The notes under the pieces are model-generated. The model saw only the letters and a program-made list of their open reading frames with translations, did not search any database and was not told the origin of the DNA. A stretch of DNA of 63,800 nt, counting the filler, from Sphacelaria rigidula (taxonomy: Eukaryota), in the NCBI GenBank assembly GCA_964200075.2. It is 10 parts of 10 records of this genome, joined end to end, with 100 filler letters (N's around TTAATTAATTAA, not from the genome) between each part and the next. Parts side by side here need not be neighbours in the genome. Positions count along the whole stretch, not along the records: positions 1 to 6,290 come from CAXNAA020020977.1; 9 more parts are not named here. One strand, given 5' to 3'. Below are positions 1 to 44,315 of this stretch, one piece after another. Each line of letters begins with the position of its first letter. The stretch's first letter is position 1. The position numbers were made by a program, and so were the translations under genes.

Positions 1-66
1 GGGAAAAGCACTGTTTTAGGCTTGAGCCTCATCTCGAAGTTAAACCTCAATTCTCACAATTTGTTG

Positions 67-1555
67 TTATTTGATGATTCCCGCTCGAAGCTTTTGCTGA
101 GACTTGTCCCAACATTTATTAAATACCACGTGCATGCATGCCTCAGATCTCTCTGGTATTTCGGACCCCGCTCCGTTTGACCAAAAGCACAACATCCAGA
201 AGTGACACGCATAAATTTGCGAGTTCTGTTGGCCACAACGCCACCCGCCCACCGGAAGTGAAGTTTCGACTAGGATCGTCGAAAGTGCATACTGTCTCAC
301 GTGGGAAGGAGGATACGGGGTCAGAAAATATGGTATCACCCGTTCACGAATGTAGTCAGTACCCGCGGCGGGAAGGAATTGATAGGTCCCACAACAGGCC
401 CGCCCTGCTTGTACGCAAGCTTGTCTTCTGCCCCCCCGCCCATCTTTTGCCAGCATTCCGGCACTTTGCCGTTGGTCTTCGTGCCGTGGGGATCGGCGAA
501 GGTCACCCTCGGGTTCACCGTGAATGTCTCGTTCTCTTCGCTCGGTTGCTTGTGTGCCATCATAATGCCCTCCATGTGAGGGTAAAAATGATACCTCTCG
601 TGTTTCTTTCGGGAGCCTCCGTGGCGGCTGGAGTACTCTACTAGCACGTAGTCGTCTTCGACCACCATATAAGGGTCGGCTTCGATCGCGCCTGCGTAGG
701 GGTGCGCGCCGCGGTGTATCGCAGCGACGGTGGGTGTTCGGGGAGTGCCAGTGGGTTATCAACATCACCACAGGACGCCGTATCAGAGCAATGATGAAGG
801 ACGTAGGAAAGCGGCGATTCAATGCGACGGACGAGACGAAGCACACAATTTACCATATCCGCGCTCGTGTGGCGGATACTGACTCAGACGTGTCTACCCT
901 GTTTTCAGCAACATCGATGCCGCGGTTGTGCCTGTCACGAACCGTGCAGACCGTGATACCTTGGATACGATGTCCGTGCCGATTCCAGGGCCGCGGGACT
1001 GCAAAGGCGATGGTGCCCATCGGATGCAAGACTTCCAACACCTTTTCAACGAACCGCCTGAAGTATCCCTTGTTATCATCGTTTGTCGTGTTCAGCATTG
1101 CTTTCTCGACATCGATGGAGACTATGATGAGCTTCGGCGGTCTCTTCACAGGGAGTGGCTCTTGTTGGTCAATAAGAGTGCAGTGGCAACGGAGTAAATT
1201 ATCCTCGTGTATGCTCGTGTGATGAGCCCTGTACAATATCACGTAGCAGGCACGCAATAGCACCGTCAGTTTTCCTTCGTTGCGCGCTGGCCGTCCGCAT
1301 GTCGTGGGGTGTAGCGTGTATTCTCTGATATAGCCCCTCCCGAGAAAGTGGTTGGTTTGGGGGGGGCAACAACCAACACGTGAATCGATATGAAAAAATA
1401 CCCTCATATTGAGCAGATTGGAATATTAACGCTTCTATTTGTTTTCGCCCATGTCGACTGAACAAGGCCCTCCATGCACTCTGGAATCGAACATTACGCG
1501 GTGGAAAGTCATTCATTGATTTGCTGGCGGTTTTCGGCTGGCGTTGGGGTGGGGG
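67..1555 (-). pseudogene. Decayed, intron-containing beta-class (N6_N4_Mtase-like) DNA amino-methyltransferase-like gene
   Basis: Phase-compatible exons 1555-1402, 1228-960 and 691-~67, with GT..AG introns 1401-1229 and 959-692. The spliced product, with ~3 frameshifts, reads RIIYSVATAL/IDQQEPLPVKRPPKLIIVSIDV..YFRRFVEKVLEVLHPMGTIAFAV..HRIQGAIEADPYMVVEDDYVLVEY..HFYPHMEGIMMAHK..RETVCTF..GRVALWPTELANLCVSLLDVVL/..NGAGS. This is collinear with the beta-class MTase motif order. Motif IV reads SIDV instead of SPPY/DPPY. Confidence 0.55.
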
Positions 1556-1653
1556 CTAATCCGGCGTAATTCTTCGGCATGCGTTCCACTACGGTGTCTA
1601 AACTGGCGGCTGCACCGTCAGGTTTTCGTACTCACCGCCAGGATCATACTCAC

Positions 1654-3180
1654 CGCCTTCTCCATAATGTATCACTGGAGATGGTTTACATGTGGGTATT
1701 TTCGGATTCCGCCGTACCAATGGCGGTCAGAATTACCGCGCGCCGTCGTCCTCAAAGTCCGAAAGACAGAACCAACAAACAGCTGCGCTTGACAGTCCCA
1801 GTGTCGCATGTCGACCGACTTATGCATGCTGTCACAACCGTCGTCCAAGGGAGCAATCTAAAGGTGAGCTTCAGTCGATGACACAGTCTCCACAACGGTA
1901 ACCTATCCTCGCACCTTCTGCTTTCCACGGTGGGACCGGCAGGGGGGAGCATTTGCCCTGCTCGTGACGATTTCTTCCCCTTTTTCTTGGATTCCCTCCG
2001 CCTCCGACCCCGTAAGTTCTGTCCCCTTTCCTCGTCTGGCCCCCCGGCTCGTCCTCGCAGACAAGGCAAACTCGTCGCTTCCTCTCGGCAAGAGATGCAT
2101 CCTCGGAGACGGGCACAAGTAGCTCACAGAAGGTCTGGTGCTTCATCCCGCAGTGTACGCAATGGTATCTGCCATTGCGAGGACGGCATAAAAGTGTCGA
2201 GAGGTTGGCGGTTTTCCAGGTGAGGTTATTGTTGTTTCAATCATTACACGAAGTGATCTTAGAACGGTAGCATTGTACGCCGTGAGGTCAACTGGTGTGC
2301 TCGGCACCGTCGAAACGGCTTGCGTGTTGATTCATGCTATCCCTTCTCACCTGACGTCTGATGATGGATCGCACGAGGGACACAGTTCGTCTTTGCGGCT
2401 GCCCTCAGCCGGTCGTTGACAACCGCTATCATTCTCCTCCGATTCACCAGCATCCTCGTCCTCGTCTTCCTCGCCGCCCGCGTTCGCCAACTTCAAGCGA
2501 GCGATGGTGTTGTTGGCCTCGTCCCACCTCTTCCTCCAGCTATCGTTGTACCGCCTCAGGGCCCCTCTTTGTGCTTTCTGCGAAAACGGGCCGTGGTTAA
2601 AAATGTAGGTGAACAACCTCGTGGACATGTTCCAATGCTCTCCCGATCACGTCGGTGGATGATCGGGTATCATCCTTGTTGTGCCCATGACTGGCATGCG
2701 CCAATTTCGCGCGTCGCAAGCCCGTTCTGCGCGATTTGGATTTATTTATCACAGCAGCATGTCCGATCCACCTTACGTTCGTATCGTCTTGGCGACCTAT
2801 CGCCCGAATTACTCACTATCCGACATTCAACTCTTGACGTTTGTGTGTCGGTCACGTACGAGGTCCAGCCGCCGATGGAGTTTGCCGAAATTACTCACTA
2901 TCCGACATTCAACTCTTGACGTTTGTGTGTCGGTCACGTACCAGGTCCAGCCGCCGATGGAGTTTGCCGAGACAGACATCTTCGAACGCCTTCATGGCTG
3001 CTCCGTTCCGTTCTTCCTCGGGCAGGCTTGCCCGTTTCTCTTCTATGCTGTTGTCTACTGATGTGATGAAGTTTGTGACGTGCAGCTTGAAATCCTCCAG
3101 CCCGTATATGCCGCGAGTCAACTCGCGAGCAACCCTAGTCGCGTTGTTCGCGGAGTGCAAAATGCCTCCCGTGAGCGTTA
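1654..3180 (-). pseudogene. Decayed coding region with piggyBac-type C-terminal Cys/His-rich zinc-ribbon; possible transposase relic
   Basis: KRRVCLVC...RIGYRCGDC..(fs)AHL*IAPLDDGCDSMH at ~2075-1820 resembles the Tnp_zf-ribbon/CRD pattern. An acidic linker lies upstream (2347-2628). A weak IRT*GGSDML...RNWRMPV segment near 2790-2690 recalls the piggyBac KGGVD..RWPM block. Stops and frameshifts are present. Confidence 0.4.
2807..2970. repeat. Tandem duplication, 2 x 82 bp
   Basis: aattactcactatccgacattc...gatggagtttgccga occurs at 2807 and 2889, nearly identical. Confidence 0.9.
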
Positions 3181-3726
3181 CAGCGCTTTTGCCCCTGATG
3201 CTAGTTAAGTCATTTTTTAATGCTAGTAGTTACACAAAATATTCGGCTCATGGAGCGCAATTTATGCTCGAATTTCACAAAATATGTGCTCGATCCATGC
3301 TCGCAAGATGGGATTTATGCTCAGTTATGCTCGCAATATCCAACAAGCGCCATTTTTGACCGGATGTAGATCCACCGATCACTACATGCATAGTAAATAT
3401 GTTTAGATATATGGAGTGAAACAAAGAAACGACAGTCAACCCGACAGTTTAAATGACTGGTTCCTCAACATTCACGTATATCACACCCGGCCGCGGTCGA
3501 TGATAGCAGAGTTTAACCCCAACATATCACACCACGTCGACATTTAGATAATTGTTGCTAACTCTACTGGAGAATTGAAGCTCGATTATGCCCCCGATTT
3601 AAATATTATTATCGTTTACGCTACTTGCCGAAACGCTGCGCTATCTATGCCACCTGCTGAAACGCTACGCTTTTTATGCAAGGCGGAATGATGCCAGAAA
3701 GTGTGCTAGCATAAGGGGTGCAAGCC
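3181..3726. mobile_element. AT-rich MITE-like insertion flanked by TA (Tc1/mariner-type)
   Basis: Imperfect TIR: gcttttgcccctgatgctag versus reverse complement gcttgcaccccttatgctag. TA at 3179-3180 and 3727-3728. Excision restores the minus-strand frame QHMFVSRL|TLTGGILHS. Confidence 0.55.
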
Positions 3727-5161
3727 TAAGCGTGACACGAACATGTGCTGCACGCACGACCCTTGCTTTCGAAATACTGTAGCCTAAGACAGCGGTTACG
3801 GTCCACCGCAGTCGACGCGCGTGTTACAATTAATGCAAACTTATTCTTCGAAGACGTCGGTCCACGCTTCACGAGGGATCTGCCTCTCTGAACGCTCCAG
3901 GAGGATTGCGGCTGTTCGTGCGTCCGTGGAGATACGCCCCCAGTCACTCGCTTTAGGATTCGTCTTGTTCGCCGTTTGGAACCTGCGGGCAGCGCGAATA
4001 TATAACGTGTGCTGTGAAGAGTACATAAGACTTTTCAACCGTTAGGTGCTGCATGACGGGGCCAAGGGAAACTCTGTCTCGTTCTCTATTTTTCGGAGAC
4101 CCTTCCACGGGATCTTGAATGTACGAGAGTCCGATGTTGATGAGAAACATCCTCGTCTGAAAACGGTCATCATCGCCGATGTGAAATGAGTGTGTGATTA
4201 GAGGGTGGGCGCTCCAGCGCGTTTCTCAGCGATGCACGTCGGCGCCTGTATTTTGGTGGGCGTCGGGTTCGGGTGCGTTACACTAGGCATCGTACGTCGA
4301 AATCCCCAGCGATTGACCCTGACGCAAGATGCGATAAACTAAGGGTCATGGGATTATCCACCCGCATTAGACGGGGGGGGTGTACCTGACGAGCATGTTG
4401 ATCGCGATGGATTGGGCCTGGGGTTTATCATGCAGGTCTGCGTACTGTTTGCTTCTGAGAAAAGCCAGAGATATGGCTCCCGAGTCGACGCCACGGTTGT
4501 CGCATTGAAACGCCCAAGCGATGGCTTTCATCGCTTCTGGCGATATCGACAAAACCGCTCTTTTCCATTGCCGCAGAGTCGTCATGGACGGGACCCGCAC
4601 GTGCAGCTGGCGGTTTCAAGAGGAGGCAAGGGTACCGGCACGCATTGACGGACGTAGGAAACATGTGTTACTGTCGAGCATTTCTGTTTTTGCTCGGGCC
4701 ATCGTCACGCGATCCAAGTTACCCCGCGCGCGCTGACAGAGCGCAGTGAACGAACAATACGGATTTCAGGCAGGGCAATCGGGCGTAATCCAACACCATC
4801 AACCGTTCTCTAGTATCTTCATTTGACGTACTCGAAAACCGTGGGTGTAAGCAGTGAAAGTGAGAAATGATCGAACGAAGAAAGTGGCCCGCTGACCCCA
4901 TATCCGAATCAAGTAGCCTCAACTAACCTCGAATCGTACGTTGCCGCAATGGGGTGCAGAGTGTATGGGCTGGTCACCCCCGCTCACACGTGGATACGAA
5001 CATATCCACACACCCGAGCCCTGGCAACGAGTGAAGCGAGAACCGAAAGAGCAGGCGTATGTACTCTTCCTGCAGCCGACTGCCGCGTCGGAGCGTACTG
5101 TAGGGTGTAGCATCATGGTCTGTGTCATACAGTGCACGCCACACTCTTGTAGATTCGGCAA
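3727..5161 (-). pseudogene. Further decayed coding-like segments upstream of the contig-1 relic (unassigned)
   Basis: A chain of short minus-strand ORFs (3841-4038, 3953-4150, 4367-4600, 4719-4922) with protein-like composition. Frame continuity across the MITE at 3727. No family recognised. Confidence 0.25.
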
Positions 5162-5284
5162 TGCGGTACAGCAGCAGTGTCGGTCTCGTGAAACAATATA
5201 CTCCTATCTACTCGAGCACGACACTCAGGTCGCTTCTTTATAACAAATTGAAGTCAAAACCCGGAAAACTGCCTTGTTATAACT

Positions 5285-5626
5285 TTGGCATAGTTCCACG
5301 CCTCAACAAAGAGCTAGACGGAATTTGACACCTTGCGATGATTTTCGTTACTCATTGAGGTGAGCCCTGGACATTTCCCCCTTTCTCAGTGGCCGCAGTT
5401 TTTATTTTGGTCAAAGAAGAATTTTTGTCCGGGAAGGGTGAAATCCAGAAAAATATGCCGACTGTTCTTGAACTCAAGTTCTTGATTGGCGAACATAAAA
5501 ACTACGGCCACCGGAGGACGAGGCAATGTCCTGGAACCCCCCCCGACAAGTAGAGCAAATCATTCCAACGTGTTGGTGTTCACCTAGCTCTCGCTTGTGG
5601 TTTACGACGACGTGAAAGCTCCAAAA
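5285..5626. mobile_element. Diverged copy of long-TIR foldback MITE (family of 60742-61118)
   Basis: gagctagacggaatttgacaccttg... and ...cacctagctctc..acgacgtgaaagctccaaaa align to the two arms of the 60742-61118 element. Confidence 0.65.
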
Positions 5627-6254
5627 GAGCACTTTCTCAGATTTCCACTCACTATTGTAAACTCCTCTGCAATAGCTTCCGCTCCGACATTATCTTTTTT
5701 CGTGCGATCCTGTATGGAGCCGATGATCCCCATGAACATATAAAGTTTATCGTTATTGTTCCTTTCTGACAGCGTCTCTCCCACCTCGTTCAAAGCTGTG
5801 CCGTTGTGCCAAAATGAATATGTGGAGAGTGAACGTTTTGACGTGGTCGATTAGGGATGGTGACTCGTCCAATCGGTGTGCGGGTTGTGGGCTCCAAACT
5901 CAAGCACTCAGGAAAAGCTTCATTTTTTAAATAATCGACAAAAATTCCGGCGCTCAACTTGCCGTCTCGCCCGCGTGCTAGACGGCGCGCCTCGTGAGGG
6001 GATACCGCTACAACGCCACAATAAGGACGGGAATACAGGCTGGGCCAGCCTGCAAGCCGATTTGTACTTTGCAGGCGAATTCGCATTTTTTTTTTGGAGT
6101 TGGAAAATGAAATTTGGCATGGACAATCAACAGGGCATGAAGAAAAGCTGTCTGTGAGGTCCCAACGTTTTTTTTTCGTGAGTTGAAGGCGTTTTACTAA
6201 AACCTAAAAACTGATTTTTGCCCTTAATTCACGACAAAACAAAATGTTGGGACC

Positions 6255-6290
6255 TGTGACACTAGCAGGTCTGCTAGTACTGCAGCGTCT
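6255..6290 (+). mobile_element. Terminus (TG...) of a repeat, probably an LTR; contig breaks inside it
   Basis: tgtgacactagcaggtctgctagtactgcagcgtct is 35/36 identical to 57338-57373; both copies lie at contig ends. Confidence 0.55.
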
Positions 6291-6390
6291 NNNNNNNNNN
6301 NNNNNNNNNNNNNNNNNNNNNNNNNNNNNNNNNNTTAATTAATTAANNNNNNNNNNNNNNNNNNNNNNNNNNNNNNNNNNNNNNNNNNNN
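6291..6390. other. Artificial contig linker N44-TTAATTAATTAA-N44
   Basis: Identical 100-bp spacer with stops in all six frames, recurring every 6390 bp. Confidence 0.98.
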
Positions 6391-15700: not shown

Positions 15701-17589
15701 CTAAGGTTTGCACTTAACCCTTGATACCTAAGCAGGATCGGAACCGAAGACTGTCGCGGTAGACAGGTTGCGCTCGGGGCCTGTTTACTCAACACCCCCC
15801 GCCCACCCCCCCCCCCCCACCCCCCCCCCCCACCCTCCCCCCACCCCACCCCCCCCCACCCCCCCCNNNNNNNNNNGGATCGGAACCGAAACCTGCGCGG
15901 GTAGACGGGTGGCCCCGGGGGCCTTTTTCCCCAACCCCCCCCCCCCCCCCCCGCCCCGATATGCTCACATGCCGTCCACAAAATTGACATTCGCTCAACC
16001 TGCACTCCGCCATGTCAGTGTCACCCGTTCCAGGCACTGGTCGACTTCATCCATACCGCTCTCTTTGCTGTGGTCAGAACATGTATCCGAGGAGGTGCTG
16101 CCGTTGGTGGCCAAACCGAGCGCCATCAGGTCGTATTATGCACACTACACTCGATTTGCCCTCCCACCCTCTACCGTAACACTTCAGCGTATGAACGGCA
16201 GTGTAGCGTTGCTGGGGTTGTATCGCCCCTTGCACCCTCTGCCCAATGTCGCGCAAGTGCAGCTGCGCCGGAATCTATGCTTCTCCGCCGCGTCAGGGTG
16301 ACATCCACAAATAAGCTGCTTGATTTTGCCCGCAGTTTTCGTCAGTACTGTAAGCTGACGGGGTCGATAGAATCCCCCGAGAAGATAAGCACGCGGTCGA
16401 GGGGCATTAGGCCGGAAAAAAAATTATTGGCTAGACACTGCAAGTGTGGGGAAGGCACTCTTTTCGCCTTGAACGTCATTCTGGTAAAAAATACCTCTTT
16501 ATGAAATCAGCTGTCACTGCTATTTGCTAAGCCTCAACACCGGGCGGTGTGCCGGCAATCAGTTTGTACAGGAGACTGCTCGAAAAGTTATTTGCACTTT
16601 CGATGATAGCCCGCCGTACAGCAGTCATCATACAAAGTGCAGGCCCGTGAAAAGCGACAGAAAGCATCGATCGCTATTTCGCCCTGATTCAAGACGCTGT
16701 ACGTGCAGCAACGATGGTGTATTCAGTTTCCGACAATAGGTGCCGAAGACACAGGCGATAATGCTATGCAGACATGGTGCACGGCAACACAAGCGTATCT
16801 CACCGGTGTCCCCACGGCGTTCGTTCCCTGTTAGTCTGCGTCAAGGTATATCCCGCAACGTGGCCCCGGCGGCGTGTTCATCCTAACCTCCACCTGCCAA
16901 TCAGGACGCGGCAGTGAGCGGTGAACCTACGGTCATTGTGTGTTATGGACTGCTGGTGTCACATATACGAATCCGCGCCACATGCGGCCCTACTTGCAAT
17001 GCTGATTTACACGTCGATGCGGTCTTCCACCTCAGGAGTCGGCATCATCGGTACGTACCGGTGTCGAGAATTGAACGGAATAAAACGTTCGATGCGATTT
17101 TTGGAAAACTCGACGAAACGAGGTTGATATCGATATTTTAATCGATACTCGGGAAATGGCCAAACAACAGGCTTTCTGGTTTTTTGGGCTGTTTTTGGTG
17201 TTCTTGTAGGGTCGTTGTTGATAGCACCGCGACTAGTTTAGGCGCCCTGCTCGTCCTTTGAGGATTCTTCTTTTTCTACGGGGAGTCGGGAAAGGCACGA
17301 CACGGATGTAATTCGCGCGCAAAAAACATGGCACGGGCACGTTTCATCTCAACTCCCACCGGCGGGGGACTGTCATCTTCGATTTTCAGAGCTCACGTCA
17401 CATTAGTTCAATTCTTTCAGCACATGAGTTTTTATCTCTGACCCGTGGTCACGGGATGCAAGGAACTCACCACCGATGACCATAAAACCGAGAGTCGACA
17501 GAGGATGTCTTTGCACAAAAAACTGTACACGAAAACAATCACCCCTCCAAAACCGATCGAGCAACGAGCAACACACTGCAAGCCAGAAA

Positions 17590-18460: not shown

Positions 18461-19053
18461 TTAGCTTCCAGCTCCGCTCCTGGTGGCCGTGGGTCGGCTA
18501 CCTTGTCGGGTCGTACTGTTTTTCTTCTTTTCGAGGGGAGGGGAGATCTTGGTTGGTGGCGTGACGGGTTGGTTTCCGGGAGGGGACAGGGAGTTATCTC
18601 TGACCCACGGTGCTTTGCGCGGTGTCGAATCGTCGTTTCTTGACGCATATGACGCTTTCTCCTTCAACAAGTGTCGTTGGCAATCAGACAGGAGCGTGGC
18701 ACGCGTGTCGTAGAAACAGAGGTCACATCTTATGAAAGCTGGTTCGCCATCCCCCGCCAAGAGATCATAGAGTGTTTTTGGGACAGGGTTGCTGTATACT
18801 CGTAACACGGATGAGTGCACTCCTCGGCCGCTTTCACGAGGGTTTTAACGCACGCGCGGCCGTCCGCATGGGCGTATACCCTGTCTTTACCGCCGGTAGG
18901 ATCGGACATGGGCTGGTACGGGGTGCTGACCCCAATCTCGTCGCCACACGCTAAGCAGAGGAAGGGCAGCTGTTTTCTGAAGCCCTTCGGGACTGGTTTT
19001 AACAACAAATTGTGCGAATTGAGGTTTAACTTTGAGATGAGGTTCAAGCCCAA
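18461..19053 (-). pseudogene. Frameshifted coding relic with CxxC motifs, unknown family
   Basis: Overlapping ORFs 18730-19053 (CLAC..HADGRAC) and 18461-18820 (CDLC..CQRH) join through a frameshift near 18815. Confidence 0.3.
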
Positions 19054-19070
19054 AACAGTGCTTTCCTCAC

Positions 19071-40390: not shown

Positions 40391-40948
40391 TTCTTCACCT
40401 TCGGTATCAGATTCAACTTCGGTGTAAGGAAAGGTGCCACATTAACAACGATAGTGTAGCGGCAGTGTTACATACGCCGAGAGATTATTGCAGGGGTGTG
40501 GAAGCGCGAGATGCAGGACGAAAAGTGAAAAAGATACCTCTGAACGGCGGCCGTTCGACGGTTTCATTATGTCTCTCAGTCATGTTCTATTTCGCATAAC
40601 TTTGGCCTCAGTCATACTCCGCATAGCACGGTATGCGACGTCGGCTCTGCTCAGTGAAGTTTGCGCGCGTATGTCTGGTGTTCTACACCAAGACGTAGCG
40701 TGTGCGGGAGAACGAACAGCAATGGCCTGACGAACATTAGCGTAAAAGCTGGTACTGCGGTGACACAAGTGTTTCGCCGCACTTCCTCTCAAGAGGGTCT
40801 TCGAAAACTTTACTGCATTGCGTCGTCTACCCCGGTACATACCGACTTTTTCAGCATCGCCAGCAGACGGCGCGATCAGCCCTCTTCTCCGCGGTTCCCG
40901 TATACTGGCCTGGGTTAGCCAGAGGTTGAAAAGGAACTAAGTAGTTTA

Positions 40949-43228
40949 ATGTTCGGGTTCAATGGTAAAGGTGGGGATACATCGGGTGGTCGAGACAGGG
41001 CTCAAGGAGAAGGAAGCGGTCAAGCCGGTGCAGCCAGTGGGCAGCAAGGCAGCGCGCCAGGGTCCGTATCGCACACAGGCGGCGCGCCGACCCCAAACGG
41101 AATTTTCGGCAGCCAGCGTGGCTTCGGGGGTAGCACTATTGGGGGCGGATTTGGTACCGACGGTACTCGGTCGTACGCAACAGCAGTTGGCGGGGCCGGT
41201 GGGGGAGGCGATGGCGGCGGTTCTTCTAGCAGCATTTTCGCCGCTGGAAGTGGTTTTGGTAGTACAGGGTTAACTAGACAGTCGTCGTCAGGAGGGGGGG
41301 CTTTCGGGGGTGGATTTGGAGCGGGCAGATTTGGAGGACATTTTTCGACGTTTCCAAAACCGTCACAAGCAGAAGCAGCGGCTGGGGGTAGTAATCGTGA
41401 ACAGTCAGGGAATTCGACGAAAGGCAAAACGTTTGGCAGCGGAGGAGGTTTCGGCGGTAGTGTTGGCACAGACAATGTAACCGGCGGAATCGGCGGATTT
41501 GGAGGGCATCCACAGTCATCAAAGCCCCCGACGCAAACAGCGGCAGCGGCAGGGACGGTGGCAGCGGCGACGAAACCGTCCTCTTCCTCCAGTACTTTTG
41601 GTTCGGGGGGAGGGTTCGGTACTGGAGGCGGAGGATTCGGTACCGGAGGAGGCTTTGGCTCTGCAAGGGGATTTGGCACCAGTGGAGGCCTCGGTGGTGG
41701 TGGGGCAGGAGCGATGACAGCGGGGAGCGGTGCTTCTGATGCTGGCGGTGTGAGCGCTACGTTTGCAGCGGTGCTGAAGAAGAGTGCAGCGTCACCTGCT
41801 GTGGCGCCCGCGGCGTCGGGCTTCGGCACGAGTGGAGATTTCGGCGGCGGCGGCTTTCGCGGCAGGAGTGGGTTCGGCGGAGTAACAGAGACGGGGTCCA
41901 GCAACACTCGAAAGAAAAATGGTGTTTCTTCGACGGGGGAACGTGATGCTTCACAAGCAGGGGTGTTTGGGCGCGGCGGCTTTGGCGGGACGGGTAGTGC
42001 GGCTGATCCAACAGGGACCTCAAATCCTGCCGGGTTTGCTACAGCCTCGAGTGGCACCAAGAACAGTAGCGGCGGCAGTAGCAGTACAGCCGGCGGAGGG
42101 TCATTCGCTGATGCTGTCAAGCGCGGGCTCCCGTCTTCTAAGACCGCATGGGCAACGGCTAGCGGATTAGACAGCAACAGCAATTCAGGTTTTGGTGGTC
42201 ATAAGAGCAACCCACCTGGCGGTGCCGCGTCTACAGGGTTCGTTGTCGGTGGTGACAGCAAAACCTCTGCATCTAGTGGATTTTGGGGCAGCGGGTTTGG
42301 AGTCACGAACGCCGCAGATTTCAGTGCAGCCTCGGCTCCAGCATCAAAACCTAAGTCTACTGCTGGCGACGGGGCTGTTGCCATAAACGCTGCGGCGAGT
42401 AGCGGGACAAGAGACGCTGGCGGGAGCACATCGACAAGTGATGCTCCTTCCGGCGGGTTTGGCCGGCGACAGAGAACAGGCGCGCAGGACGTGAGCGAAA
42501 CCCGCGGTCCAGGCGTCGCAGGGCGGACTCTGTTTGGAGTTGGTGCAGCGCGAGGACGGGGTTTGTCATCAACCGCCGATGGTGGTGCTGGTGGTGGCGA
42601 TGGTCGGGCCGGGGAATCGGTTGGGCAAGCAGGGCAACGAGGAAGCAACAGGGTAAAACGACGTCAAAGGCAAGCCGCTGCCATTTCAAGTGGTGACGGC
42701 GACGGAGACGGTGGCGGTGGAGGAAGCGGTACAGCCCGCGAGCTGTTCTCAGCGGTCGCAGGGAGCAGAAAGGAACCGACACGCCGCAGTCGCATCATGG
42801 GCATGAATGATGCTGATGTCGCTGCAATGTCCCGTTCCGCAGCGCCCGCACCGACGTTCCTCGGTGACCCCAGAGGTGAGACACGTCGGAGCGGTGGGGG
42901 AGAGTCTAAGCGCTCCAATCCCTCAGCCGCAGGCAGCAGGATCCTGGGCGGGTTCGGAGCCGAGCCGCCTAGTTCCACCCCACCCCAGTTTGCCGGCGGA
43001 TTAGTTAGTCGTAGTAGTGGCAACGGCGCAGGAAGCACTGGAGGAGGCAGTGGGGTATCTGCATTCGGTGGATCAGGCGCAAATGATGCAGAAGAACGTA
43101 CTCGCCGAGCCCAACGGTTTGGCACATCGACAGGCGCGGGCGGCGGCGCGGGCAGTGGTGATGGCGGGGGCGGCGGGTCAAGATCCCGGGGGGGAGGTAA
43201 AACGAGTAGGGGCAATGGAGGAGGGGGT

Positions 43229-43286
<58 letters not shown>

Positions 43287-43804
43287 AAAGACGGGGGGGG
43301 GGGGGAAAAAGGGGGGGGGGAAGGGGGGGGGGGGGTGGGGGTGATGGCGGCGGAGGCACCGCAGAGGACGTGCAAAGGGGGAGTCATTTGGATGATGCAG
43401 AGATAAAGGTGGGCACCGTGGAGGCAATGTGCCCGCAGGAGGAGAGGTGGCGTCGCGTTCCCGGCGATCTCCATATCTTGGAAAAGGAGCACCCGTCGAT
43501 GCTGATGCCCGACCGAGGAGATGGTACGCCTCGGCAACCGTGGACGCACGAGAACTTGGTCGTTAAGAGGCATCAACGCGCGGCGGCTGGAATGGACATC
43601 AGTAAGGCAGAACTTTTGCGCACACCTCCATGGCTGGCGCGGACGGTAGACCACCTTGTGATGAACTGCATGGACAAGGGGCCGCACGGTGGCGGGGATC
43701 CAGCTGCGGCATGGGCCGACCCTCGTATTCAAGAGTACATGGCAAAATTTCGGGCCAATAATCCGTCGAGGGCGGATCTTGCGGAGGACGAGACCGAGCA
43801 AGAT
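40949..43804 (+). CDS. SAC3: SAC3/GANP-family mRNA export (TREX-2) scaffold, exon 1: FG/Gly-rich N-terminus + start of Sac3 domain
   Basis: Open frame of 952 codons with many FG/GFG repeats. C-terminal VGTVEAMCPQEERWRR..LHILE..VVKRHQRAAAG..ELLRTPPWLARTVDHLV matches Sac3/GANP GTC.DMCPE.ER..AVK.Y.R..A..LRP..VL..T.DYL. Donor GAT|GTGAGA is phase 0. Confidence 0.88.
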
Positions 43805-44315
43805 GTGAGAGCCATCGCTGAGAGGAAAATCACCCATGTTTAGACAGCGCTATGGTGAAAATGATATAAATCATGTTAGGAAAGTTTGAAGACAGGTGGG
43901 GACTGTCGATCGTGAGTGCGAGCTTCCTTGCCGCGGGTGTTGTGCACATCACGTTAAAGTAAGGACATATCACCATGTCATACTACATCTGTTAATTAGC
44001 GAATCGCTTCTCAATTGGAAGTTTGTTTCGCAGGTAAATTGCCAAGCGGCAAGTGCTGCACGGTTCTGTTGTCTGTAATCGTCAATTGCTTCGTGTTATT
44101 CATAATTTGACGGAGTCAGCCGAATCATCTGTGACAATCACGTCAAATCAAAGCCGGCGCGGCAAGTGATGACTTGAAAATCATCACTCTCAGTTGCATC
44201 CTGCCGGCGCGTGCTCCCTGTCATGTTGTCGTCCGCTGACGGCAATCTGATTTTGAATCTACTTTCTGCCCCCCCCCTCCCTCTCTCTGTCTCTCTCTGT
44301 CTCTCTCCTTTTCAG

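Follow-up and report, generated by a model that had tools for sequence, protein, structure and literature searches.

Eukaryotes have acquired adenine methylases many times independently, as described by Iyer and colleagues (PMC4738411), and DIRS1 elements carry an inactive methylase domain with substituted catalytic residues that was proposed to bind rather than to modify (PMC4738411). The giant DNA transposons of Ectocarpus carry spliced and transcribed accessory genes, mostly of unknown function and in many cases pseudogenised, and Sola1-1_Ec32 of Ectocarpus codes for a protein that combines ParB with an N4/N6 methylase (PMC12477816). Likewise, red-algal Plavaka elements carry PAG2, a gene with PF01555 and SET domains (bioRxiv 10.1101/2025.02.11.637652). 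As such cases on algal transposons and of eukaryotic acquisition have been published, an intron-bearing prokaryote-type methylase in an alga would no longer be a rarity. Here we describe a locus of Sphacelaria rigidula (assembly GCA_964200075.2) that lies in the first part of a stretch of 63,800 nucleotides, referred to as the window. An earlier reading made from the sequence alone had taken it for an intron-containing, prokaryote-type beta-class DNA amino-methyltransferase-like gene of a kind that is rare in eukaryotes, a premise that is now dated. We find a minus-strand gene of at least seven exons, spliced and damaged, whose conserved C-terminal domain defines a family that has so far escaped annotation. 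The full reading, namely that the locus is one copy, now decayed, of a eukaryotic gene that is repeated, transcribed and spliced, has a permuted amino-methyltransferase-like domain and travels as passenger of a repeated element, is one that we place midway between doubtful and probable.

The beta-class enzymes (PF01555; E. coli YhdJ, M.MboIIA, M1.HpyAVI, M.RsrI and the bdelloid N4CMT) match the locus, in a forced alignment, in the order of hydrophobic strands and helices. In this alignment they also share the order of several conserved positions: a start of the form I-H-x-D-x-L, the motif-IV strand, the stretch Y..F...vL.p.G, a hairpin, E....K, T.N and the FP..L helix. Moreover, they rank near the top of the structural matches to the model of the longest relative (P0008, see below). 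Nevertheless, no significant sequence or profile match links the locus to this class. It reads SIDV where these enzymes have the catalytic tetrad, it is a eukaryotic gene of several exons, and it encodes a Cys/His cluster ahead of the domain. The MT-A70 enzymes belong to the same permuted fold class, and chains of METTL3-METTL14 and MTA1/MTA9 fill most of the top rows, although the locus gives no Pfam match to MT-A70 at E<=10. METTL14 and the ciliate MTA9, with their degenerate motif IV and their binding or scaffold role, would provide the closest functional analogy. METTL3 has zinc fingers ahead of its catalytic domain.

The accessory genes of giant algal transposons resemble the locus in another respect, being alga-type, intron-containing and transcribed genes with many diverged and often pseudogenised copies. 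However, Sola1-1_Ec32 and PAG2 are recognised as PF01555 by Pfam or InterPro, whereas the locus is recognised by no profile, and Pfam finds neither a ParB nor a SET domain in any of its exons or open reading frames (ORFs). In addition, the 6.29-kb piece shows neither a transposase nor the ends of an element. The DIRS1-type retrotransposons share with our reading of the locus a methyltransferase-like domain on a mobile element with substituted catalytic residues, but theirs is derived from PCIF1, not permuted, intronless and part of a retrotransposon polyprotein. Neither a reverse transcriptase nor a tyrosine recombinase was found among the further ORFs of the 6.29-kb piece.

Exon structure of the gene

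The exon structure was derived from Logan contigs of four sequencing runs, aligned to positions 1-5000. Three of these (X1-X3) are small runs of one study that were guessed to be RNA, none being recorded as such, whereas the fourth (X5) is larger, of a kind that is not stated, and covers exons and introns alike. Parts that X1-X3 leave uncovered (e.g. 2172-2338, beyond 4677, and the drop after about 335) were excluded from the evidence. The joints 690/959 and 2168/2351 were found in contigs of all three small runs, the former skipping 959-692 exactly with GT..AG ends. The joint 1227/1914 was found in X2 and X3, with a one-letter variant (1228/1916) in X1 and X2; 2577/2942 and 3134/3845 were both found in X1 and X2, and 3980/4384 in X1 and X3 (cut placed +2). 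At every joint but one the window has GT..AG ends. Exons 4 to 7 are all connected by a single X3 contig (record 17), which is 1,090 letters long. None of the six joints occurs in the contigs of X5.

At least seven exons on the minus strand, from 4585 to 340, thus encode at least 544 residues (Table 1). When the exons are joined by their coordinates, all contain an open frame, and the phase is kept at five of the six junctions. The frame of the first ATG stays open for about 330 codons through exon 5 and, after a one-base mismatch at the border of exons 5 and 6, continues for 207 more to a TGA at 338-336. The correct frame of exon 6 begins with AHHTSIHEDNLL... and is free of stops through KLIIVSIDV to ...HRIQ. 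Over 538 codons the GC content at codon positions 1, 2 and 3 amounts to 0.587, 0.433 and 0.658, as compared to 0.504 for the introns. The codon-position GC and the open, in-phase exons therefore indicate that the gene is coding now or was so very recently.

The protein consists, in order, of a helical and charged N-terminal part, an acidic stretch, the Cys/His cluster and, encoded by exons 6 and 7, a conserved C-terminal domain that is about 200 residues long. The pattern of the cluster, which gave no Pfam family at E<=10, suggests a zinc-binding module.

A tandem duplication of 82 bases (2807-2970, two copies, 98% alike) spans the 3' end of exon 3 and its donor, and creates a second copy of this donor at about 2860; the spliced contigs use the one at 2941. 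The duplication is missing from one X1 contig (joint 2806->2889).

Damage and repetition of the locus

The out-of-phase junction can be traced to a single position in exon 5, where related contigs are one base longer than the window. The extra base after 1988 is present in a depth of 14.7 out of 14.7 in X2 and 439.3 out of 478.3 in X5, and absent, as in the window, from X1 (0 of 32.5) and X3 (0 of 8.9). With this base exons 5 and 6 share one frame. A second irregularity concerns intron 2, which opens with ATAAGT instead of GTAAGT in the window (3835-3844), while related contigs are spliced exactly there; the AT start is either a mutated donor of this copy or the sign of a rare AT-AG intron. 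Of the 20 best-supported exonic differences between window and contigs, 6 are synonymous and 14 are not (335 more fall outside this table), a ratio that agrees, weakly and for a subset of the differences, with the expectation for neutral drift. This copy thus has a one-base frameshift in exon 5, an AT start of intron 2 and a cut by a repeat before the last exon or exons. Being damaged and truncated, it is by itself of little value.

The locus as such is repeated. On positions 1-5000 there are 2,423 contigs of X5 with 90-100% likeness (429 at >=99%, 914 at 95-99% and 1,080 at 90-95%), and these fill all 30 bins, including the introns and the upstream DNA. We read them as many diverged copies of the whole unit, introns and flanks included, the summed depth of the contigs not being a measure of copy number. 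Within the window tblastn with all exons revealed no second copy of the exons.

The conserved C-terminal family

Relatives were collected using phmmer with exon 7 (115 residues) as query against 1.84 billion representative proteins. At E<=0.001 there were 14 matches, of which nine were kept as relatives (E 1.2e-60 to 6.4e-4); P0003, P0007, P0011, P0012 and P0014 are tandem-repeat or low-complexity proteins and were dropped. All nine are short ORFs on Logan, ENA and NCBI contigs; they comprise 78-163 residues and show 33-84% identity. Their alignment defines the signature MVVEDSPLL.Y...GGRR.......N..E....AHK.P......T.N.RVT..D..G...G..P.......GAPNGGPR..FP...L..LVNR, in which ten columns (Y, G, E, A, H, N, D, G, G, P) are invariant. 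The only named relatives are two 'unnamed protein product, partial' entries of the brown alga Sphacelaria rigidula, P0002 being an NCBI protein of this species.

Three relatives, P0002, P0008 and P0015, include the end of exon 6 without an intron, and P0002 and P0008 cover the last third of that exon. Since all three read straight across, the 960/691 junction is confirmed independently of the contigs. The exons 6 and 7 domain thus defines an unannotated conserved family that is also present on other eukaryote-like contigs.

Searches beyond these databases did not extend the family. Word-indexed searches with the exon 7 ORF, exon 6 and the family alignment A1 yielded no longer proteins, the JGI metagenome contigs contained no relative (queries exon 7 and P0008), nor did the IMG/VR viral contigs (query alignment A2), and the ESM Atlas gave no usable match for exon 7 or P0008. 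Moreover, none of the 14 matches among the 1.84 billion representatives looks prokaryotic, and the horizontal acquisition from a prokaryote that the sequence-only reading had proposed is not borne out by these matches.

The 3' end of the gene

Exon 7 ends with ...FPPRVLTTFVN, followed by GG/GTGATA with a potential donor at 339-338; reading through it would give a G and the stop TGA at 338-336. Five of the nine related ORFs (P0001, P0004, P0006, P0009 and P0013), as well as P0017, a cluster-mate of P0006, end at the aligned position with R and a stop, which is what a phase-2 donor AG/GTRA gives when it is read through. In addition, one X3 contig that matches up to 342 continues with 132 letters that are absent from 1-5000, the first 30 of which keep the frame open; these 30 bases have no match in the window with up to three mismatches. 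On the basis of the common ending of the relatives and of this continuation, we read 339-338 as a donor and the gene as continuing in exons outside this contig. One X1 and one X2 contig run unspliced across 343, however, and the end of exon 7 may alternatively be a true stop. P0005, from a Logan contig, is alone in extending 19 residues (109-127) beyond the LVNR end, including the sequence C-G-V-G-T; if derived from a spliced transcript, this tail is only suggestive of the start of a downstream exon with a glycine-rich loop.

A repeat of 65 bases at the edge of the piece truncates the gene. The repeat ends with ...TTTGTTGTTA, and a second copy of it (19000-19064, 94% alike) lies on the opposite strand at the end of piece 3. 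In the first bin the summed depth of the X5 contigs, which is not a copy number, reaches about 800,000 versus hundreds elsewhere, and the contigs diverge at 68-72. The repeat, for which Rfam has no family at E<=0.1, resembles the terminus of a short mobile element of very high abundance, and pieces 1 and 3 probably end where the assembly broke in it.

Possible relation to amino-methyltransferases

We consider the chances about even that the conserved domain is related, very distantly, to the circularly permuted amino-methyltransferase fold, i.e. the fold of the beta-class N6/N4 DNA methylases and MT-A70, a view that leans on the structural model described below. The principal alternative is that the fold is new or unrelated to methyltransferases, that the likeness of the motifs is due to chance and that the AlphaFold model has drifted to a common alpha/beta arrangement. 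The locus would then still be a decayed copy of a repeated gene, with another task in nucleic-acid or chromatin biology that is hinted at by the Cys/His cluster only. We take this alternative seriously and rate it somewhat below even.

The sequence comparisons weigh against a methyltransferase and in favour of an unrelated fold, as all of them remained at chance level. At E<=10 Pfam found no methyltransferase family, including PF01555 and MT-A70 (PF05063), in six ORFs and six exons, and at E<=1 again no methyltransferase family in 11 database matches, eight of which are family members. PHROGs and NCBIfam contained no methyltransferase family for 12 proteins, and neither single exons nor the family profile retrieved a methyltransferase from the PDB sequences at E<=10. 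Pfam did list Dehydrin (0.17, other frame), Rhamno_transf (0.13), Polysacc_lyase_14 and NOMO_8th, which we set aside as chance-level rows. Pieces of E. coli YhdJ that would be the counterparts of exons 6 and 7, with 88 and 115 residues, reach 58.5 and 81.7 bits on PF01555, and the size of the fragments can therefore not be the cause of the missing match.

A more sensitive comparison was made with hhalign, for which the family alignment, with the joined exons 6 and 7 of the window as first row, was used as query against 79 YhdJ-like methylases from bacterial genome contigs, or 131 when viral contigs were added. The smaller set gave a score of 17.0, a probability of 0.4% and a P of 0.15, but 7 of 40 column-shuffled versions reached the same score and the reversed alignment scored 17.1. 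With the 131-methylase template P was 0.17. Similarly, the joined exon 6 and 7 protein ranked 45th of 501 in an hmmsearch that included 500 shuffles. The beta-class assignment of the sequence-only reading is thus not recovered by profile.

When the alignment is nevertheless forced, the result is collinear with the pairing of motifs in the sequence-only reading and non-significant, the start pairing even better in the right frame. In the first part SIHEDNLL pairs with IIHGDAL, KLIIVSIDV with DLIFADPPY, and the Y..F...vL.p.G stretch is shared; further on VEYSS pairs with SYDSS, MEGIMMAHK with YEPILMMVK and FTVN with YTFN, followed by the FP..L helix. This pairing of motifs is a resemblance and not a passed test. 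The catalytic motif IV has the consensus (D/N/S)-P-P-(Y/F/W). At the corresponding site (1119-1108) the window reads S-I-D-V, in agreement with the degenerate motif IV noted before, and the coverage of the relatives stops short of it. Moreover, no cofactor-binding half, a further element that a methyltransferase should have, is seen in piece 1, the exon after the 339 donor lying outside the window. In the permuted order of the beta-class enzymes (IV...X-I), the glycine-rich motif I of this half would follow the FP..L helix.

The AlphaFold model of P0008, the longest relative (163 residues, alignment of 13 rows), is of low confidence (pLDDT 45.6) and consists of two strands, a helix, a hairpin, a helix, a strand and a final helix. 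Such an order would correspond to that portion of a permuted methyltransferase which begins with strand 5 and ends with the helix preceding motif I. In a Foldseek comparison with the PDB, 25 of the 43 rows listed are beta-class or MT-A70 amino-methyltransferases (including M1.HpyAVI, MTA1/MTA9, METTL3-METTL14, TTHA0409 and M.MboIIA), and in a second structural comparison they make up 44 of the 50 rows listed. Only 14 distinct PDB sequences match the YhdJ-type N6/N4 profile, and for that reason the ranking exceeds what chance would give. The same small number makes a chance enrichment, as the unrelated fold would imply, unlikely. In addition, the methyltransferase rows span most of the model whereas unrelated rows cover 52-92 residues only, and the family that tops two aligners is the one that had been predicted beforehand.

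On the other hand, nothing was found at E<=0.001, the best methyltransferase row (M1.HpyAVI) having an E of 0.29, and all structural scores of P0008 are below the noise guide of the tool. The model of exon 7 of the window (pLDDT 44.5) shows a hairpin only, and its eight Foldseek matches at E<=10 include no methyltransferase. In a viral structure library 3 of the 50 rows listed were named methylase or ParB. The structural hint is moreover not independent of the sequence, as AlphaFold may respond to the same faint motifs. The low confidence of the model, the result for exon 7 and the lack of a usable ESM Atlas match for both queries thus join the sequence tests, in which true fragments of the methylase family are easily detected, in favouring an unrelated fold. 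The sequence-only reading had staked its case on a significant profile or structural match to amino-methyltransferases; none was obtained, yet the low-confidence model still ranks the beta-class and MT-A70 first, which keeps the idea of the fold alive.

The gene model of the sequence-only reading, in which the exons 1555-1402, 1228-960, 691-343 and 343-143 and about three frameshifts give a complete beta-class methylase-like protein that extends from the motif KIIHGDAL to motif I, is very improbable. The letters it quoted do lie where it had put them (GAGG/GTATTT at 1405-1396, TACAG/GG at 1233-1227, CAAG/GTATCA at 963-954 and CGCAG/GC at 696-690), and all its peptide strings are found in minus-strand frames. 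The intron 959-692 is real, being skipped in contigs of all three small runs and read straight across by P0002. Its other intron, 1401-1229, is correct at the acceptor only (AG at 1230-1229, used in X1, X2 and X3): the donor joined to it lies at 1914-1913, and 1401 is used in no contig. RIIYSVATAL was translated in the wrong frame of exon 6, which stops 27 codons past the acceptor. Since the KLIIVSIDV frame is open from the acceptor onwards, the frameshift claimed near RIIYSVATAL is unneeded and an artefact of donor 1401, and a single frame break, the one-base gap 1988/1989 relative to X2 and X5 contigs, suffices for the whole gene. The last segments, RETVCTF..VALWPTELANLCV and DVVL/GAGS (143-343), lie past the conserved exon-7 donor, in two frames and without counterpart in the family, and four upstream exons were missed. 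The more general picture of an intron-containing gene that belongs to a family, and of which this copy is damaged, is upheld by the joints, the exon frames and the phmmer relatives.

That there is no gene, and that the ORFs have arisen by chance in DNA that is non-coding or transcribed in antisense, we discount almost entirely: no known domain was found and long plus-strand ORFs do exist (566-1222 and 123-644), but the spliced joints, the in-phase open exons, the codon-position GC and the conservation of relatives down to 33% identity speak against it.

Other features of the window

The window is composed of ten pieces of 6,290 bases, which are not necessarily neighbours in the genome, and the locus resides in piece 1 (1-6290). 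Gaps of 10 N occur at 15867, 26703 and 28881. A GC-rich piece contains an open frame of 974 codons (40919-43843, plus strand) with the start of a SAC3/GANP domain (E 1.6e-10), which is a protein of the nuclear mRNA-export type. This domain, together with the spliced locus in piece 1, indicates a eukaryotic source of the sequence. An Rfam scan of 1-6290 revealed nothing besides a sub-threshold match to the plant microRNA family MIR7504 (6153-6263, plus strand; 30.5 bits versus a gathering score of 83, E 0.021), which is rich in A/T runs and probably due to chance.

Table 1. Coordinates of the features at the locus and of the spacers in the window
Feature	Position	Strand	Remarks
65-base very abundant repeat	5..69		edge of piece 1; gene cut off here
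Intron 7 or unspliced tail	70..339	-	after the GG/GTGATA donor; holds RETVCTF..VALWPTELANLCV and DVVL/GAGS
Exon 7, 352 b	340..691	-	joint 690->959; 9 related ORFs; MVVED.. via ..AHK.. to ..FPPRVLTTFVN
Exon 6, 269 b	960..1228	-	joints 1227->1914, 690->959; first half of the C-terminal domain, KLIIVSIDV and GYFRRFVEKVLEVLHPMGTIAF stretch
SIDV	1108..1119	-	site where the sequence-only reading put motif IV
Exon 5, 254 b	1915..2168	-	joints 2168->2351, 1227->1914; single open frame; 1 base out of phase with exon 6
1-base gap	1988..1989	-	related contigs one base longer here; exon 5
Cys/His-rich cluster CxxC ... HCxHC ... C ... CxxC	2057..2382	-	from translation; spans intron 4
Exon 4, 227 b	2351..2577	-	joints 2577->2942, 2168->2351; acidic stretch, then start of the Cys/His cluster
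Exon 3, 193 b	2942..3134	-	joints 3134->3845, 2577->2942; frame open, in phase with neighbours
Exon 2, 138 b	3845..3982	-	joints 3980->4384, 3134->3845; next intron opens ATAAGT
Exon 1, coding part	4386..4585	-	first ATG 4585-4583 after in-frame stop; donor CAG/GT 4386/4385; joint 3980->4384
Spacer 44 N + TTAATTAATTAA + 44 N	6291-6390, then each 6390 bases (12681, 19071, 25461, 31851, 38241, 44631, 51021, 57411)		

Implications

If the conserved domain does have the permuted amino-methyltransferase fold, exon 6 would provide strand 4, with SIDV replacing the catalytic tetrad, and strand 5, whereas exon 7 would provide the hairpin of strands 6 and 7, the target-recognition loop and the FP..L..LVN helix. 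Exons past the end of the contig would then encode the cofactor-binding half. With SIDV at the catalytic site this copy could not transfer a methyl group. In case intact copies should also lack the tetrad, the protein might resemble METTL14 or MTA9 in serving as a scaffold or as a partner that binds nucleic acids, rather than as an enzyme, and the Cys/His cluster upstream may help in the binding of nucleic acids.

The gene may furthermore be the passenger of a repeated element, in the way of the accessory genes in giant algal DNA transposons. As to residence on a transposon, no transposase, terminal repeats or second copy were found in the window, and none of 49 further ORFs of the 6.29-kb piece gave a transposase domain. 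A still broader proposal would be that of an extremely divergent and so far unrecognised branch of the permuted amino-methyltransferase fold (beta-class/MT-A70) that has lost the tetrad, has old and conserved introns and spreads in many copies, together with repeated elements, among brown algae and further marine eukaryotes, where it would act as a zinc-finger-assisted partner that marks or shields its own element. We put this forward tentatively and consider it rather unlikely as a whole.

In any case, the family has no Pfam model and the databases hold only exon-sized fragments of it, either labelled 'unnamed protein product, partial' or unannotated. It now has an exon structure and a signature, which are useful for annotation even if the methyltransferase reading should fail. 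If that reading is true, a catalytically dead and intron-rich branch would join the amino-methyltransferase folds that were taken up by eukaryotic mobile DNA. It would take its place next to the PF01555 genes, recognisable as such, that have been described on transposons of red, green and brown algae, and would suggest a way in which such elements may recognise their own DNA or RNA.

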